From: a virus
Strand: one strand, 5' to 3'
DNA length: 64,000 nucleotides
Virus record (IMG/VR): IMGVR_UViG_3300046007_003718
Location: 1 to 64,000 of that record
The position numbers were made by a program, and so were the translations under genes. Each line of letters begins with the position of its first letter. Position 1 is the stretch's first letter. The notes below the pieces were generated by a model. The model was not told the origin of the DNA. It worked only from the letters and a program-made list of their open reading frames with translations, and did no database searches. This document shows, piece by piece, positions 291 through 58,617 of this stretch.

Positions 291-2707
291 TAAACTATCC
301 AGTTATTTTGAGTTTTCTGAATTGGCGCAACAGGTTCACTTGTGCCATTTGTGTCTGGACCTAGAGAATAGAATACTGGAAGATCAATATCTTCTAATAA
401 GAAGTCCTCTTCGTAAATAGTAATATTTGTTCCATTTGCTGTAACTTCTTCCAATCCATAGTGAACAGCATCATCTGCGCTAGTAGCAAAACGAACATTA
501 TCAACTCCGGGAGTTTGATAGACAATCTGAAGAATATCGTTGAGTTGTATTACTGCTCCAAACAATTGATTATTAAAGAAAGTTTCAATGTTATTTGAAA
601 TGTCTAGATTTACAGAATTTACAACAAAACCATTTGTGTATATAACAACAAGATTAGCAATGAAATGACGGAACTTAGCAGTATGAGCGAGAACATCTTG
701 TCCAATCTGACGATGGCTATCAATAATTCTGTTTGTTAAGAAAGGCAATTTATCAAAAGTATATTCTATAGAAAACACACTTTGATTAATAGCATTAGCC
801 ATTGCGGTAGTTATTTCAATACCATCTCTACAACGGTAACTATCTCTCAAATCTGTAATATCTTTTAGCAACCAGTAATCGCTACCGAGTTCATAATCAA
901 TACCATTTATATTTAAAATCTCCGGGACGGAACGAACTGGAGTCCATATTAGATTTATAAAATAATTTGCAGTTCCGGGATGAGTTGTTGTGTTACTTCT
1001 ATAGAAATTTTCATAATGATATTTATCAGTTACATCATCTTTAATAAGATTGCCGGGGCCAGCAGTAACGTCTTCTGCTGTCTCAGTATTTTGTCCTGAG
1101 ATATAAATATCAACCTTATTCATGCTTGAATAATTATTATTTAAATCAATAACATTACGGCTCCACTTTGAAAGATATTCATGCTCTAAGAAAACGATGG
1201 AATCTTCAGTTAAATCATCGGTTGGCGGTTCTCCAACCGCAACAGAACTGTTATCATAAAAAGCAGTTATATCTACTCTTGCAGTCCCAGATGCGCTTGC
1301 ACTCCCAATTGCGGTGGTGCCAGAAGAGAGTGAATTTATATATGTAAGAGAAGATGAGCCAATTGAATGCACCGTCCCGGAATATGAAGCAACTGTAGTA
1401 GTTCCGATAGTTACAGTTCCTACAGATATTGTTCCTCCAGTTTCAATTCCGATTAGATTTGCAGATCCAGATTCTAAGTAAAGTGTTGTTGTTCCACTAG
1501 CACCGGCAGTTCTTGCAAAAGAGGTTACTGTAAACGTTCCGTGAGTTGCTATCTCTCCAACTTTTTCCCAAATTGGGTTGGCTACTCCGAGGTCTTTTCT
1601 ATAAATATTTTTAGAGGTTACAGTTCCCCCAGCGAGTGAAGTGCCTGAACTATTGTAAAGATGAGTCACCGTTCCGACTTCGTTTGAGAAAGTAACTTCA
1701 TTACTAGAAGAACTTATACCACTCTGGCCTCCGGGAGTGTAAGTGTAAGTATAAGCATATTGATAATTTCCAATTAAGAAATCTTCATCAAGTGAAGTGC
1801 CAGCAACAGGAGTGCCGCTAGGAGCAGGATTTCTCATGTTTTCTGCGTAAATTTGTGCAGTTGGTACTCCAGTTGTGCTGACACTAAAAGTGTAATCAAT
1901 ATCTGGAGTATAAAACCGAGAAACATCATTGCCTTGCGTACTTAAATAATAATTAAAATCATACACATGCTTTGAATTTGGGTTAAAACTAGACGCACTT
2001 CCCGAGGCATCTAATGTCATATATTCTTGGAATTTACTTATAGGTCCGACAATCGTTGCTCTATTTGTATATTGGTTTGCAATTGCTAATGCTAGAAACT
2101 GCTCATCTGTTCCAGCGATATTACGGAAGATATTATTCTTAAATCTAACCTTAAGTTCATCATCAGTTTCTTGGTTTGTTCCACCTGTGGTAGATGTGTA
2201 ATTATTTACCGTCGCAACATCAGAAACTTTTGTAATGATTCTATTGATCTGGTTTGCTGTTACGTTACCGACTTCACCGGGGATAGTTGCTTCGACGGGA
2301 ACTTCTGCGTATGTACCGTTTTCTGGAATGACACCATCGGCCACAGTTATGAATAGAATTTGAGAAGAAACGGCAGAGGCGGTAGTGCTAATCTGAGTAC
2401 CGCTTGGGATAAAAATTGCAGTGGGAGATGGAGTTTTTCTACTAAAGGTGACAAATCCTGAAGCACGACGAGCCGTTTGACGCGCAAAACCGAATAATTG
2501 AATAAAATCATCAAGGTCTTGCCCAAACTTAGTAGTAATATCTAATTGATATCTTTGTACAAATTGATCAAATTGTATATCAGCGAGAGATTGAGCAACA
2601 ACATCAATAATTTTTCTTTCCGGGGTGCCTACCTCTAGAGAGATTTCTGGATCTAAAATATAAAGTTGATCCCTCATTCTTTTACTAAGTTCTTCTTGCG
2701 TAAACAT
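290..2707 (-). CDS. Baseplate J-like wedge protein with inserted beta-rich domains
   Basis: Typical gpJ motifs (R..A..ASG.VTF, VEAT.PGE.GN, GG.NQETDDEL..RF; C-terminal PGVDNV). Confidence 0.9.
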   Translation of the reverse strand: MFTQEELSKRMRDQLYILDPEISLEVGTPERKIIDVVAQSLADIQFDQFVQRYQLDITTKFGQDLDDFIQLFGFARQTARRASGFVTFSRKTPSPTAIFIPSGTQISTTASAVSSQILFITVADGVIPENGTYAEVPVEATIPGEVGNVTANQINRIITKVSDVATVNNYTSTTGGTNQETDDELKVRFKNNIFRNIAGTDEQFLALAIANQYTNRATIVGPISKFQEYMTLDASGSASSFNPNSKHVYDFNYYLSTQGNDVSRFYTPDIDYTFSVSTTGVPTAQIYAENMRNPAPSGTPVAGTSLDEDFLIGNYQYAYTYTYTPGGQSGISSSSNEVTFSNEVGTVTHLYNSSGTSLAGGTVTSKNIYRKDLGVANPIWEKVGEIATHGTFTVTSFARTAGASGTTTLYLESGSANLIGIETGGTISVGTVTIGTTTVASYSGTVHSIGSSSLTYINSLSSGTTAIGSASASGTARVDITAFYDNSSVAVGEPPTDDLTEDSIVFLEHEYLSKWSRNVIDLNNNYSSMNKVDIYISGQNTETAEDVTAGPGNLIKDDVTDKYHYENFYRSNTTTHPGTANYFINLIWTPVRSVPEILNINGIDYELGSDYWLLKDITDLRDSYRCRDGIEITTAMANAINQSVFSIEYTFDKLPFLTNRIIDSHRQIGQDVLAHTAKFRHFIANLVVIYTNGFVVNSVNLDISNNIETFFNNQLFGAVIQLNDILQIVYQTPGVDNVRFATSADDAVHYGLEEVTANGTNITIYEEDFLLEDIDLPVFYSLGPDTNGTSEPVAPIQKTQNNWIV

Positions 2708-11057: not shown

Positions 11058-13348
11058 TATGGACCTCCCGGATTAGGATTTGCTCTATTTTCCGTTCCCG
11101 GAGGATTAACAACAACAAACTTACCTTGAGAAGAATTGGCTGCTTTATTAAATACATTAAACCATTTTCTAGCATCATCACTGAGACTAATTTGAACTTC
11201 ATTTTGTTTAAGAGCCTCTTTAGACATTGCCTCTTGAACTCTTTCTTGAAATGCTTCTGGACTAGAAATATCACCGCTTGTAATTTCTTTTTGAATTCTT
11301 TTCTTTTGAGATTCTTCAATAGCCCCACTTTTAACTGCTTTAGTCAAAAGTTCTGTACTTCTCTTCTTCCACTCTTTTTGGAAGTTTGCGCTAGGCTCAT
11401 CAGAAACCCAATCCCCAATTTTAAGACCGTATTCAGTGTTAAGAGTCTGCCATTTCTTTTTGTCTCCACGCCCTGCTTGCATCAGAAGGCTGGCGGCTCT
11501 TTCAGCGTCAGTTCCCTCTGCGGCAGCAATCGCTGCATCTAAATCTTCTTGGCTACCCTTACCTTGTTGTAAGCGCATTCTAGCAGTGTAAATGGCTTCT
11601 ACTTTTTCTTCAAAATCGGGGTCTCTTCCTCCAATATCAATTTTGCCAAAATCTATTCCAGTATGGCTTCTAACAGTAGGCACTCCGGGGATACCCGGAG
11701 GAAGAAAACTACTGTTTTCTCCCCATCCGGTAATTCCAACATCGCTGACCTTTCCACCGGAAAGTTTTTGAAGTTCTCCAAAAGCGGCCATACCTTTTTC
11801 ACCAACCGCCGCTGCTCCTCTTTTGGAATTTACTGACGCCCTGAAGCCTTCAGCAAATCCACCCAATTCACTACTTATTTTACTTCTTGCAATGACCTTT
11901 GGACCCTCTTCATAAATTTGTTGAATCATGTAAGGATCTTGACCAGTCATCTTAGCGACCATAAACATTGCCATATCTTTGTCACCACCACTTTGAGCAG
12001 CAACCCTATCAACAAGCCCTCTCATTGATTCTATTTGAGCAATAGCCGCTTCATCGGCTCCTTGACCATCTCCCATTCCGGGATAAAAACCCATAGCAAG
12101 TTTCATCATATCTTGTGGGTTTCTGAATTGACCACCAACTCCTCCACCCATAATCCCTGCGGCCAATATTCCCGTCATGCCCTGACCACCAAGAAAAGAT
12201 TCAACAGCACCACCTTCTAATCCTGTAAATCCAGAATAGATTGAACCTGCCTGTAGAGCAGATGGGCCTCTTGCTCCCAAAGCATTCATTCGGCTAGCAA
12301 CTTGAGTAGTTTCTCCTGTATATTCAGAAATGCTTTTTCCAGCGGCTTTAGCCATAGGACCAAATTGTTTAATCATTTCTGCGGCATCTTTTGCATCCAT
12401 TCTAAGCCTCTTGACTGAAAGACTTAACACATCAATTGCTTCACTAACATCAATAGAAGTCGTCATGATAATATCTCTTACAGCGTCTTCTACATTAACT
12501 GTTTCTCCAAGATTTCTAAAGCCAGCCTGAGCAACCCCTTGATTTATTTGCAATGATCTTTCGTATGAAAGCATATCAAAAGGATTTAAAGATCTAGTAA
12601 AAGCACGATATTGACTTTGCCATCCTTGAGATTGCGCTGGACTCATTCCGGCCCCAAAAGCGCCTCCCACAAGATTTGGATTAGTTCCACCTGAAAATAG
12701 TAGAGATGGAGCGGCGAACATTCCAGAGAAATAAGAACCAAAAGGAGAGCCTGCCATACCAGCAACACCTTCATACCCCGGACCTTGATAACCTGCCATC
12801 ATTCCTAGTTCTGTTGGGTTTGTTACTCTTCTATCTACAGAACTTTGAATTGCATACGAAGTCGCGTTATAAAGATTTCTTCCACCAGTTGGAGATAAAA
12901 TTCCCGCTACTTGTCCTAAAGCACCCTCACGACCAGTCATTCTTCCAAGATAGTATGGGAGTGCCCTATCTAAAAATGGATGACCTTGTGCAAAAGAGCC
13001 CAGTCTTTGATACATTCTCCCAAGTCCAGAACTGCTTTCTTGAGGTGCTGAAGGCTGTGCGGCTGCTCCTATTTGTCCGGGCTGTGGAGTTTGTGCATTA
13101 AAATTAGAGGCTGGTCCTCCTCCACCACCACCAATACCTCCACTCAAGTTTTGAATTGCTTGAGTTAAATTTTGTATCTTTTCAGTATTTTCAACTAAGG
13201 CTGCTTTATGCTGCTCTAAAATAGATGTAAAGTTTGTTTGACCAATAGAATTTTCATCTTTAGAATCTCTAAATACTTTAGTAAAAGTATCTCTAAGAGT
13301 TGATTCCATATCTTGCCAATTAACTACTCTTACATCTTGTGAAGCCAT
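11057..13348 (-). CDS. Tape measure protein
   Basis: Gly/Ala-rich helical protein directly downstream of the frameshifting chaperone pair. Confidence 0.8.
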   Translation of the reverse strand: MASQDVRVVNWQDMESTLRDTFTKVFRDSKDENSIGQTNFTSILEQHKAALVENTEKIQNLTQAIQNLSGGIGGGGGGPASNFNAQTPQPGQIGAAAQPSAPQESSSGLGRMYQRLGSFAQGHPFLDRALPYYLGRMTGREGALGQVAGILSPTGGRNLYNATSYAIQSSVDRRVTNPTELGMMAGYQGPGYEGVAGMAGSPFGSYFSGMFAAPSLLFSGGTNPNLVGGAFGAGMSPAQSQGWQSQYRAFTRSLNPFDMLSYERSLQINQGVAQAGFRNLGETVNVEDAVRDIIMTTSIDVSEAIDVLSLSVKRLRMDAKDAAEMIKQFGPMAKAAGKSISEYTGETTQVASRMNALGARGPSALQAGSIYSGFTGLEGGAVESFLGGQGMTGILAAGIMGGGVGGQFRNPQDMMKLAMGFYPGMGDGQGADEAAIAQIESMRGLVDRVAAQSGGDKDMAMFMVAKMTGQDPYMIQQIYEEGPKVIARSKISSELGGFAEGFRASVNSKRGAAAVGEKGMAAFGELQKLSGGKVSDVGITGWGENSSFLPPGIPGVPTVRSHTGIDFGKIDIGGRDPDFEEKVEAIYTARMRLQQGKGSQEDLDAAIAAAEGTDAERAASLLMQAGRGDKKKWQTLNTEYGLKIGDWVSDEPSANFQKEWKKRSTELLTKAVKSGAIEESQKKRIQKEITSGDISSPEAFQERVQEAMSKEALKQNEVQISLSDDARKWFNVFNKAANSSQGKFVVVNPPGTENRANPNPGGP

Positions 13349-55174: not shown

Positions 55175-55203
55175 ATTGCTCCTTTCGTTTTCCATCTGAA
55201 TAG

Positions 55204-55246
55204 ATGGTATCAGATCAACCAACCAACTGCAACTACTCGTTTATAC
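55204..55246 (-). promoter_or_regulatory. Promoter with TAAACG box
   Basis: GTATAAACG-N5-TTGCAG-17-TACCAT. Confidence 0.7.
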
Positions 55247-55477
55247 TCCACGCCAACCAGAACAGGTGCCGCATGTGCAACAGCAACTTGTGGGGGATGC
55301 AAGCCAAAGGTAAGCGATAGCCCTCTCAGCATAACGTCCTTTACTATCGGCACAATAAATACGCTGCCAAATAGAGATTGTATCATCGCAGAAGTAACGC
55401 CTATGGGGGTTATCCCATGCCCTCTTATAGATAGGCTTATTAAACCACTCATTATTAGAGCATCCACATCCACACAT
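55241..55477 (-). CDS. Cys-rich small protein
   Basis: AAGGAGG RBS; CGCGC N-terminus and CCCTCGTC C-terminus. Confidence 0.65.
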   Translation of the reverse strand: MCGCGCSNNEWFNKPIYKRAWDNPHRRYFCDDTISIWQRIYCADSKGRYAERAIAYLWLASPTSCCCTCGTCSGWRGV

Positions 55478-55502
55478 AAAAGCCTCCTTTAATGATTTAT
55501 AC

Positions 55503-55596
55503 TACCCCTAGCGGGAGTCGAACCCGCGATAAACTTCCGCGTAAGCCAAGCGTCCTTGTGCGTTACCGGCGTCGTTGCCGCTAGACCATTAGGGGC
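55503..55596 (-). ncRNA. tRNA-like RNA with the anticodon arm replaced by a long hairpin
   Basis: Acceptor GCCCCTA/TAGGGGT+A; D arm GTC-TAGCGGCAAC-GAC; T arm GCGGG-TTCGACT-CCCGC; no 7-nt anticodon loop. Confidence 0.8.
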
Positions 55597-55602
55597 ATGA
55601 GT

Positions 55603-55630
55603 ATTATAGACGGTTCCACAATCAAGTCAA
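55603..55630 (-). promoter_or_regulatory. Near-consensus sigma70 promoter of the tRNA-like RNA
   Basis: TTGACT-16-TATAAT, 6 nt before the first G of the acceptor stem. Confidence 0.75.
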
Positions 55631-55846
55631 AGGTAGGCTTGACGTAACAATGCCCGCTCCCTGCTCACCCGTCACCGACAACCGATTCCTTTAGTTTACT
55701 TATTATTAGTATAAATGGCTCTCGCGCCTAACGTCCCATATTGGTTGTTAGGATTTCCCGACCTACCAATCGGTTTCTTACGGAGATTCCTCCACCCCAC
55801 TAGGTCAAGAGTGGTAGCCCTCGCCTAGTAGGTCGTGAGAACCGCT
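55631..55846 (-). ncRNA. Candidate structured ncRNA released by the hammerhead
   Basis: Pairings GGTTCTC/GAGAGCC, CGACCTAC/GTAGGTCG, CCTAAC/GTTAGG, AACCGATT/AATCGGTT; no long ORF. Confidence 0.55.
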
Positions 55847-55891
55847 GACGCCTCTCGGCGTTTCGTCCTATCAGGACTCGTCAGAGCGGCT
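55840..55891 (-). ncRNA. Type I hammerhead ribozyme
   Basis: CCGCT-CTGACGA-GTCC(TGATA)GGAC-GAAA-CGCC(GAGA)GGCG-TC^AGCGG: full catalytic core, three stems, GUC cleavage triplet. Confidence 0.93.
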
Positions 55892-56041
55892 AGTTGCCAT
55901 TACCTTCTTATGAACCTGCATAACCCAACCATCCTCAAAGTCGTGAGCATCACACGCCTCGCCAAGACTTTCGTAGGGGCCATAAGCCATGTACCCCGTA
56001 GAGAGATTACCGACAAGAAATACAAAAGTGTAGTCACCCAT
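55871..56041 (-). CDS. 56-aa protein whose stop codon lies in hammerhead loop II
   Basis: AAGGAG RBS; promoter TTGCAT-17-TATGCT at 56100-56072. Confidence 0.6.
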   Translation of the reverse strand: MGDYTFVFLVGNLSTGYMAYGPYESLGEACDAHDFEDGWVMQVHKKVMATSRSDES

Positions 56042-56103
56042 GAATCTATCTCCTTTCTCGCTTGCCCAACAAGCATACAGCACTCAATCTAGAAATGCAA
56101 GCC

Positions 56104-58617
56104 TTAGTCGGACTCTGAATAAACGTAACTGACCTCTCCCGAAAGATGATCTGAATGGCGATCATCAAAGAAACGATTGTCGTAAGTACCCCAGACTTCC
56201 TCTCCGGGGACATTAGACGCTGCTGCTTTAGACGCATCAAGGATAGAGTTAGCCAAACTCATAGCCTCGTCTGGATAGAGAGATAGGATAAACCCGAAAG
56301 TGCTATCTCCCGAATCAATCACAACTTGGTCCTCCACAACTGAAACATAGAACTTACTCATACTCACTCCAAAGTCTGCTTGCCACACACCTGTAGATTA
56401 GCAGCCCCCTATCCCCGTGTCAAGGGATAGGGGGCAACCGATCTAAATGGCCGCGCCGAAGAACTCGGGCTGCTCCTCTGGGGTGTCCACGGCCTGCTGC
56501 TCAAAGGCGGGAGTCGGAGTAGAGAACTGCATGAGCGAGTAGTCGCCGCTCAGGACAAGAGCGACCTTAGTGAGAATGCTCCTCAGAGCCTTATTCTCCT
56601 CCTCCACAGCCTCTAGACGCTGAATAAACTGAATGGAAACGGCCTCGTCGTCCATGCGCTCGTTGAGCATACCCTCAACGACATACTCCACACGGGAGTC
56701 GAAGTCGTCAATGTCGTCGGAATCGAAGGTGCGATAGCGAAGGGCCTCCTCAACTCCGTCAGAGAAGTCAAGGTTGTTGTCAATGTAGTCCTGCACGCGA
56801 CCATCAATGTCAGACTCATCCACGACAGTCTCAGCGATATCGCGGATAAACGACTCGCTGTTATAGACAGCCTCGGTGGCCTTCTCGTCCACCAGAGTCT
56901 CAATGTCTGCGGGCCAATCCTCAAAACTCATTACAGTCTCCTCTCGTTGATTGCTTCCCTAGAAGCATACAGTATGGATTCTAAAAGTCAAGGGCTAGTG
57001 CCAACCCTCGTCCTGCTCATCTAAACACTCAGTCAGAGCCGCGATAGCACTCTCCAAAGCGGGAGGGGTATAATCCAGACCAGCAATCGTGCCATTGATT
57101 AGCGCACGAATCTCGTCCTCGTACAGATAAACAGGCATCTGCCCCTCATCAAGCACGTTTTCCCAATCGCTAGAGATAACGCTAAGAGATGCAACTCCGC
57201 TCAGAGGCACGACGCACTCGTAAACAGGAGCAGCATCGCGGATAAACGACCGTCTTGCCATGAAAGGCTTACCCACAGAAAGATGCTTCTGAAAATCAAT
57301 AAGACGACGCTGCTTTGCAGGCTCGGGATTCTCCCTAGCCCACTCAGTAGTGTTCTCCCAATCAGTATAAAGGGTGCGCCCATCAACAGTACGAATCTGG
57401 ATGTAAGAACTCACTACTCCACCTCAATATCGTTAGAAAACTTCATAACGTCCCAGCCATAATAACCCTCAATCAGAGAAGCGGCCTCCTCAATCGCAAC
57501 CTCCCGGTCAAAATCAGGAGGAGCAATCACCGAAGTTGTGAGGGTGAAATAATCTCCAATAAAAGTCACATTCATCATCTATCCATCTCCTTTCATCGCT
57601 ACGGGAGTAGCGTAGCATAGAATCACTTAACAGGCAAGGTCCGAAGGTGACGGACCCTATCTCTTGCCCAACGCCTACGAGGCTCGGTAAACGGGTAGTT
57701 GTTCTCAATGCAACCATCCAGCATCTCCAAAACCCTGCTCTCGTCAGACCCCGTTTGTACCGCGAAGTCGTGAATCATCCCGCGAGCGATCTTAAGGTCG
57801 TGAAGGTTCTTTTCCCTGAGAAGTTTACGGTCGTCAGTAGCCTTGTTCTTACGAGCCTGCCGAATAAGACGCTTGGCCTCATCCTTTACCTCACCAACAA
57901 GGTGCTTGTTTGCACCAAGGAAGGTCTCAATGCAGTTGGAACCGGCGATGAGGTCGCCCCCATTGTCCACATCAGAAAGGTGGAACTCATACCGGATTCC
58001 ACCGTGACCACACACCTCGCAGGTAGTGTAGTTACCGGGACCGCGATCAACAGCCCCGACAAGACGAAGCCGGTGAGCATCCCTCTGCTCCTCGGGAACA
58101 CGAATGTCCTCAAAGAACTTCTGGATACCACCGGCCTGTCGCTTGCTGAACTCCATTAGAATCCCCTCTCGCTTGCTTACGAAGGAAGCATAGCATACCC
58201 ATTAGGGGGAATCAAGCCCTAGTAGTGACCATCATCATAATCACAGGGGAAATCAGGCTCGCGGGGTTCATCATCGTACCATCCACTTGCAGCCTCATAC
58301 TCAGACTCAGCGATATCACAACAAGCCTCAAAACTCAACTCAGCAACGATGTATCGTTTAGATGCCTCTGGCTCATCCTTAACGATACTGTCGTACAAAC
58401 TCTGAATCTCCTCCTGAGTACCAATCTCGTCTGGAACCTTGTCGTAGTTGATGATATCTCCCGTTTCGGGGTCTGTATCATACAGCCCGTACAAACCGCG
58501 CTCATAGACGAGTTCTGCCTGCTTCTGAAAAGAATACTCAGGCGGGTCGTAATAAGAATCTGGCATATGAAACGACACTACAAGTCCTCCTTTGTAACAG
58601 GAATACAGTTTTCGCAA
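56104..58617 (-). CDS. Hypothetical genes (56104-56361, 56443-56931, 56995-57414, 57623-58156 with CxxC-H/C motif, 58219-58617)
   Basis: RBS-supported ORFs, several behind TTG(A/C)NT..TATGCT promoters. Confidence 0.55.
56394..56435 (-). promoter_or_regulatory. Promoter TTGACA-17-TAATCT with the -35 in the loop of a GC hairpin
   Basis: GCCCCCTATCCC-TTGACACG-GGGATAGGGGGC. Confidence 0.7.

Follow-up and report, generated by a model that had tools for sequence, protein, structure and literature searches.

A phage type I hammerhead ribozyme predicted to form the 5′ end of a conserved structured RNA

Results

The locus and its relatives

We analyzed the first 64 kb (hereafter, the window) of the 110-kb IMG/VR virus record IMGVR_UViG_3300046007_003718, which is ~70% complete. 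Nearly all of the genes in the window lie on the minus strand, and they include genes for a tail sheath, a baseplate, a helicase and thymidylate synthase. The tail sheath is nearest, at ~36% identity, to those of myoviruses of Mycobacterium, Rhodococcus and Gordonia, and DNA near-identical to the window is present in many lake-water metagenomes. A DNA search of GenBank phages with positions 55400–56500 returned no match. PHROGs provided no function for the small open reading frames (ORFs) neighboring the ribozyme described here and no PHROG family for the 56-aa ORF, and a protein search with this ORF returned only itself.

Relatives of the locus were recovered through the structured RNA that follows the ribozyme. 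A 23-nt piece of this RNA retrieved G001, a virus record of 129,640 bases, and a degenerate RNA pattern retrieved three metagenome contigs, L126, L127 and L128. Two further contigs (L129 and L131) were repeats of G001, and another, L130, was rejected as a chance match of the degenerate pattern. A second RNA pattern found only G001 among viral contigs, an RNA pattern found nothing in prokaryote genomes, and comparing the RNA with 119 hammerhead-bearing loci by blastn and nhmmer yielded nothing. Viral contigs were likewise empty when searched at the protein level with the 56-aa and 171-aa neighbors; the same search with the 94-aa neighbor, alone or as an 11-sequence profile, returned G001 only, and this protein has 10 homologues in ENA, Logan and JGI. 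Along the minus strand, from 5′ to 3′, the locus comprises the following features:

55871–56041, minus strand: 56-aa ORF with a GGAG ribosome-binding site, whose last six codons and stop lie inside the ribozyme (sequence; homologues in G001, 49 aa, and in L127 and L128)
55840–55891, minus strand: complete type I hammerhead ribozyme, 52 nt (match to Rfam RF00163, minimum-free-energy (MFE) fold, compensatory changes in four relatives)
55609–55846, minus strand: conserved structured RNA, 238 nt, starting at the predicted cleavage site (fold z-score, conservation)
55603–55630, minus strand: sigma-70-like promoter TTGACT-16-TATAAT, before the tRNA-like element (promoter scan; −35 box not kept in G001 and L128)
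55503–55597, minus strand: tRNA-like element that has an acceptor stem and T arm and no anticodon loop (fold; ARAGORN; compensatory changes of the arm in L128)

Terminator prediction across 55200–56500 found none, including between the ribozyme, the RNA and the tRNA-like element.

A complete type I hammerhead motif

The initial annotation of this stretch had proposed a type I hammerhead with the full conserved core (CUGAnGA, GAAA and GUC), three perfect stems and a cut between 55847 and 55846. The core is indeed complete on the minus strand of 55891–55840, and the proposed cut agrees with the site predicted from the motif. All three stems are present as well, although not strictly perfect, since stem I contains one G·U wobble. 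The elements of the ribozyme, in 5′ to 3′ order, are:

55885–55891, minus strand: stem I 5′ strand AGCCGCU, doubling as codons S-R-(S) of the ORF tail (pairs with 55846–55840; two pairs covary)
55878–55884, minus strand: core CUGACGA, C3 to A9 (invariant across homologues save the free N7, which is C or U)
55865–55877, minus strand: stem II and its loop, hairpin GUCCU-GAU-AGGAC, with the UGA stop of the ORF in the loop (stem invariant, loop variable in relatives)
55861–55864, minus strand: core GAAA (hammerhead core position)
55848–55861, minus strand: stem III, pair A15.1–U16.1 plus CGCC/GGCG, with a GAGA loop (C15.2–G16.2 is U–A in G001; loop variable)
55847, minus strand: C17, the cleavage-site nucleotide (motif position; the cut is predicted 3′ of it)
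55840–55846, minus strand: stem I 3′ strand AGCGGUU, which would be the first seven nucleotides of the downstream RNA after cleavage (sequence and alignment)

Each core position specified by Perreault et al. 2011 is occupied as expected (C3, U4, G5, A6, N7, G8 and A9; G12, A13 and A14; the pair A15.1–U16.1; H17). The pairs adjoining the core are the standard ones (U2.1–A1.1, G10.1–C11.1 and A15.1–U16.1), and the helices I, II and III have 7, 5 and 5 pairs. The order of the elements along the minus strand gives the type I topology, in which stem I is open and stems II and III are closed by loops. The window has GUC as its cleavage-site triplet and G001 has AUC, both of which fit NUH, and the MFE fold of a 61-nt piece is the hammerhead fold. 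Visual inspection of the sequences flanking stem I gave no obvious complement to loop II (UGAUA) that might make a tertiary contact between the two.

Searching with Infernal against RF00163 assigned the ribozyme 29 bits, corresponding to E-values of 7.5e-5 (1 kb searched against all 4227 Rfam families) and 2e-6 (110-kb genome), and 55891–55840 is the sole RF00163 match in the 110-kb genome. This score does not reach the gathering cut-off of RF00163 (Hammerhead_1), which is 34 bits. However, the same model gave 24.9–30.8 bits to five further complete type I hammerheads of phages, including three relatives of the present one, so that 29 bits is normal for complete phage hammerheads of this build, which score 25–31 bits. 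Twelve loci, each with a complete type I hammerhead, similarly gave no RF00163 match at the gathering cut-off. The Rfam gathering cut-off thus misses this class of phage hammerheads generally. A loose pattern of the core alone matched the window five times, with 4.4 matches expected; the core string therefore carries no weight by itself, and it is the helices and their conservation that do.

Covariation supports the hammerhead fold

The ribozyme is kept in all four relatives (G001, L126, L127 and L128). We aligned the ribozymes, which comprise four distinct sequences from close relatives. Across these four distinct sequences, N7 is the only core position that varies, 17 of 17 pairs are 100% paired, and three pairs have changed on both sides, two of them in stem I and one in stem III. 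In stem I, one pair changes from C–G to U–A and the second occurs as G·U, A–U or G–C; the change in stem III is from C–G to U–A. In controls in which the 3′ partners were slid, 29–57% of positions were paired and no pair showed a double change, and three double-change pairs were matched by 9 of 500 shuffles. The ribozymes of the window and of G001 differ at 11 positions, each of which is in a loop, at N7 or in a pair whose pairing is preserved. Identity to G001 is 79% for the ribozyme, 62% for the conserved part of the ORF and 89% for the first domain of the downstream RNA.

These observations bear on the possibility that the motif arose by chance, or is a degenerate or inactive hammerhead look-alike, and does not cleave in vivo. 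Such a reading would fit the score below the Rfam cut-off, the short stem I with no evident tertiary contact, and the equilibrium folding of the full precursor, which disfavors the active fold (see below). It is countered by the E-value of 2e-6 per genome, by sub-threshold scores being typical of the whole phage class, and by the invariant core and the compensatory changes in stems I and III, which occur while the flanking genes are ~62% identical. We consider it highly improbable. From its sequence and conservation, we assign 55891–55840 as a genuine type I hammerhead, for which cleavage itself is predicted.

The ribozyme is linked to the downstream RNA and not to the small ORF

The ORF ends with the codons AGC CGC TCT GAC GAG TCC TGA, encoding SRSDES and a stop at 55873–55871. 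The initial annotation had placed these codons in stem I and the core and the TGA in loop II, which is true for the window strain, and had further suggested that ribosomes terminating there gate cleavage. In the relatives the ORF stops at a TAG that precedes stem I by 5 nt in G001 and by 4 nt in L127 and L128. The overlap between ORF and ribozyme is therefore present only in the window when compared with G001, L126, L127 and L128. The tail of the ORF that enters the ribozyme in the window is 35% identical to that of G001, for which reason we treat the two tails as non-homologous. Finally, L126, which is otherwise nearly identical to the window, has cleanly lost the ORF along with the ribosome-binding site; its ribozyme and RNA are intact, and the upstream promoter-like region abuts the ribozyme. 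Since the ribozyme is kept where the ORF is deleted, it belongs with the downstream RNA and not with the ORF.

Could translation nevertheless control the ribozyme? In such a switch, ribosomes terminating at the UGA of loop II would control ribozyme folding and couple translation of the 56-aa ORF to the release and folding of the RNA. A ribosome that reaches the end of the ORF in the window strain must physically unfold the ribozyme, which contains the final six codons and the stop, and gating is physically possible in this strain. In G001, L127 and L128 the stop is only 4–5 nt upstream, a distance within the downstream reach of a ribosome. As a function, however, gating is not supported: the overlap is restricted to the window, the ORF tail is non-homologous and L126 has no ORF at all; moreover, it is common in the class for a stop to lie within a hammerhead or shortly upstream of it. 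Because the overlap is not conserved, ribosome gating does not appear to be a selected feature, and we judge the switch to be very unlikely. On these sequence comparisons, the ORF overlap is incidental and peculiar to the window strain.

Upstream of the 56-aa ORF, we noted a promoter-like sequence, TTGCAT-17-TATGCT (56072–56100, minus strand), which is too weak for a consensus scan. L126 retains this sequence, immediately next to the ribozyme.

A conserved structured RNA begins at the predicted cleavage site

The 238-nt RNA had no match in Rfam 15 at E-values up to 10. Its first 130 nt (domain 1) fold as a multi-hairpin domain with a z-score of −5.1 relative to shuffles, and one hairpin of the RNA carries three compensatory pairs in the relatives. 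G001 has 73 nt inserted in a variable linker of the RNA. The first base of the RNA coincides with the predicted cut position in all five homologues. [quoted passage not shown]

55837–55843, minus strand: closing helix 5′ strand GGUUCUC, of which 55843–55840 are common to stem I (100% paired in five homologues)
55717–55723, minus strand: closing helix 3′ strand GAGAGCC, which competes with the ribozyme for the common bases (100% paired in five homologues)

This local helix (GGUUCUC/GAGRGCC) is paired in 45 of 45 cells, with no double change. [quoted passage not shown] Under either model, bases 4–7 of the RNA are also part of the 3′ half of stem I. A CCUACC/GGUAGG pseudoknot was rejected as it is not kept in the relatives.

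Two assembled contigs overlap this region at ~97% identity, one from a seawater RNA library covering 55615–55777 and one from wastewater covering 55669–55833; these contigs show neither transcription nor transcript ends. All four runs mapped to the window consist of assembled contigs, and the parts without cover carry no meaning. The end of one DNA contig at 55847 was taken as a coincidence.

The tRNA-like element at 55503–55597 has a 13-bp arm with an invariant 4-nt GACG loop in place of the anticodon arm, and it does not have the seven-base anticodon loop on a 5-bp stem that defines a tRNA. ARAGORN called a tRNA in the window and in L127 only and reported nothing in L122 or L128. We regard its tRNA-Cys(ACA) call as an artefact. 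A reading as a tmRNA was also rejected: its sole basis was an 18-nt match of the T arm, and ARAGORN finds no tmRNA. RNase P recognizes the stack of acceptor stem and T arm, and the element is likely a 3′ processing signal for the RNA. L126 carries a different tRNA-like element, of 76 nt, in the same place (1774–1849, plus strand).

Stem I and the closing helix of the RNA compete

Another proposal of the initial annotation was that the ribozyme and the downstream RNA adopt competing folds. This is borne out: the 3′ strand of stem I has four bases in common with the closing helix GGUUCUC/GAGAGCC, and the sharing is found in all five homologues. As both helices use 55843–55840, they are mutually exclusive. 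The predicted MFE structure of the 298-nt precursor before cleavage contains hairpins II and III but has the closing helix of the RNA in place of stem I. The 5′ half of the ribozyme (CCGCUCUGACGA, 55878–55889) is predicted to pair instead with an invariant segment of domain 2, UUGUCGGUGACGG (55660–55672). The latter never varies among the homologues, so covariation is uninformative on this pairing.

We then computed partition functions for growing transcripts; these are nearest-neighbor predictions, which do not include tertiary contacts. At the point at which the ribozyme is completed, the mean pair probability of stem I was ~0.8 in four of the five homologues. In L126 it was 0.13 at this point and reached ~0.7 some 25–35 nt later. 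In all five homologues the probability fluctuated and then fell to near 0 after 120–140 further nucleotides. Given that the precursor at equilibrium is predicted to be without stem I, cleavage would need either a short kinetic window during transcription or kinetic trapping. The suggestion that cleavage switches on the folding of the downstream RNA is plausible in a weaker sense, namely that cleavage comes first and folding follows.

A model for 5′-end formation

We propose that the ribozyme is a constitutive, co-transcriptional hammerhead that makes the 5′ end of the conserved 238-nt RNA, a reading to which we assign a probability of roughly 60%. The ribozyme would be made within an early minus-strand transcript, fold as soon as its 52 nt have been transcribed and cut after C55847. 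The upstream piece, comprising the small-ORF mRNA and almost the whole ribozyme and ending in a 2′,3′-cyclic phosphate, would then leave, and the downstream piece would begin with a 5′-OH at A55846, the first base of the RNA. The seven stem I bases left over would enter the closing helix of the RNA. We propose that capture of this remnant should drive product release, prevent religation and render the cut irreversible. At the other end, RNase P acting at the tRNA-like element would probably provide the 3′ cut, and the two cuts would excise the RNA from a longer transcript.

A more far-reaching version of this model is that the ribozyme, together with the 238-nt RNA and the tRNA mimic, constitutes a natural self-excising cassette for a new class of phage noncoding RNA (ncRNA). 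Maturation would then be a one-shot process of cleaving and then folding: transcripts cut before a further 120–140 nt have been synthesized would free the 7-nt remnant for the closing helix and mature, and late transcripts would be locked in an uncleaved state by pairing of the ribozyme 5′ half with UUGUCGGUGACGG. We put this version forward tentatively and deem it rather doubtful as a whole. If it holds, the yield of mature RNA would be set by the speed of transcription and, in some strains, also by ribosome traffic.

The proposed arrangement resembles synthetic ribozyme-flanked cassettes, in which stem I of a 5′ hammerhead pairs with the first bases of the wanted RNA. In both, the ribozyme lies almost wholly upstream of the cut and only the 6–7 nt of stem I stay on the product. 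In contrast to the synthetic cassettes, the one described here is natural, its 3′ end is seemingly set by a tRNA-like element and not by a second ribozyme, and the retained bases would be reused in a helix of the product.

Among natural systems, HHphage of the haloviruses HF1 and HF2 is likewise a phage hammerhead that heads a functional transcript. A mapped 5′ end of an early transcript lies within three nucleotides of its cleavage site (PMC3088659), and the HHphage ribozyme therefore defines the 5′ end of that RNA. HHphage is a structural variant located 13 nt before the start codon of a helicase, whereas the ribozyme of the window has a canonical core and its product would be an ncRNA. Theta ribozymes, which are minimal HDV-like ribozymes of tailed phages, have a cleavage site that adjoins a tRNA gene and were proposed to mature tRNA 3′ ends, a task otherwise left to a protein enzyme (Kienbeck et al. 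2024, PMC10879173). They share with our case the small self-cleaving ribozyme, the tailed-phage setting and the cleavage site adjoining a structured RNA gene; they differ in belonging to another ribozyme family and in acting on tRNA 3′ ends, while the hammerhead of the window would generate a 5′ end, that of an RNA other than a tRNA.

The ribozyme within the phage hammerhead class

Hammerheads of phages and prophages were shown to flank genes and were proposed to cut long transcripts, and cleavage was demonstrated for several of them (Perreault et al. 2011, PMC3088659). The ribozyme of the window is similar to these RF00163 hammerheads in its core, three helices, NUH site, open stem I, phage origin and sense orientation at a gene boundary (PMC3088659). 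It differs from them in being followed by a conserved structured ncRNA and a tRNA mimic and not by a start codon, and in the reuse of the stem I 3′ strand in a closing helix.

We surveyed the class by searching viral contigs for this core with a GUCC-N5-GGAC stem II, which yielded more than 119 loci. Complete type I hammerheads account for 99 distinct sites among the matches listed, 79 of them with a 6-bp stem I. Most of these 99, among the matches listed, are situated at a gene end with an ATG 10–30 nt downstream, and most class members among the matches listed precede protein genes. An upstream frame of at least 50 codons was found for 40 of the surveyed hammerheads; among the matches listed, 17 of these frames end inside the ribozyme and 18 within the 30 nt before it. 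The frames were run from stop to stop and represent putative genes. With 17 of 40 frames ending inside the ribozyme, a gene end that touches the ribozyme is common in the class. The ribozyme described here thus joins a known class with a short stem I that is abundant between the genes of tailed phages, and it is itself ordinary for this class.

These results raise the alternative that the ribozyme processes mRNA, either by setting the 3′ end, stability or translation of the small-ORF message or by cutting a polycistronic early transcript, with its position next to the structured RNA being incidental. The typical placement of the surveyed hammerheads at a gene end, 10–30 nt before an ATG, and the 17 of 40 long upstream frames that stop inside the ribozyme, both among the matches listed, accord with this alternative, as does the proposal by Perreault et al. 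that long phage transcripts are cut into single-gene mRNAs (PMC3088659). It does not account for L126, which keeps the ribozyme without any ORF between the promoter region and the ribozyme, nor for the cut falling at the first base of the RNA in five homologues and the reuse of stem I bases in the closing helix. We thus hold mRNA processing to be unlikely. What most hammerheads of bacteria and phages do biologically has yet to be defined (PMC6765202). In the reading that we prefer, formation of the RNA 5′ end, the ribozyme's staying with the RNA despite the loss of the ORF and its cut at the first base of the RNA point to a concrete role, 5′-end formation of an ncRNA. The case also flags an unnamed, strongly conserved phage RNA and its tRNA mimic.

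Several surveyed loci placed the hammerhead beside other RNAs. A tRNA gene follows a complete type I hammerhead after ~30 nt in two other phage contigs (L027, 7528–7681, minus strand; L084, 12160–12304, plus strand), a placement that favors the preferred reading, and in L002 a hammerhead lies within a tRNA cluster, directly after the CCA end of a tRNA. In another phage contig, L080, a type I hammerhead and a pistol ribozyme (11167–11231, plus strand; 54.9 bits, above the cut-off) are ~700 nt apart. In L017, L047, L076 and L116 the hammerhead is directly followed by a conserved GC-rich self-complementary stretch (…GGAGUAUCCCCAGCCGGGGAAUAACUGG…), which may be another cassette of a hammerhead plus an RNA.
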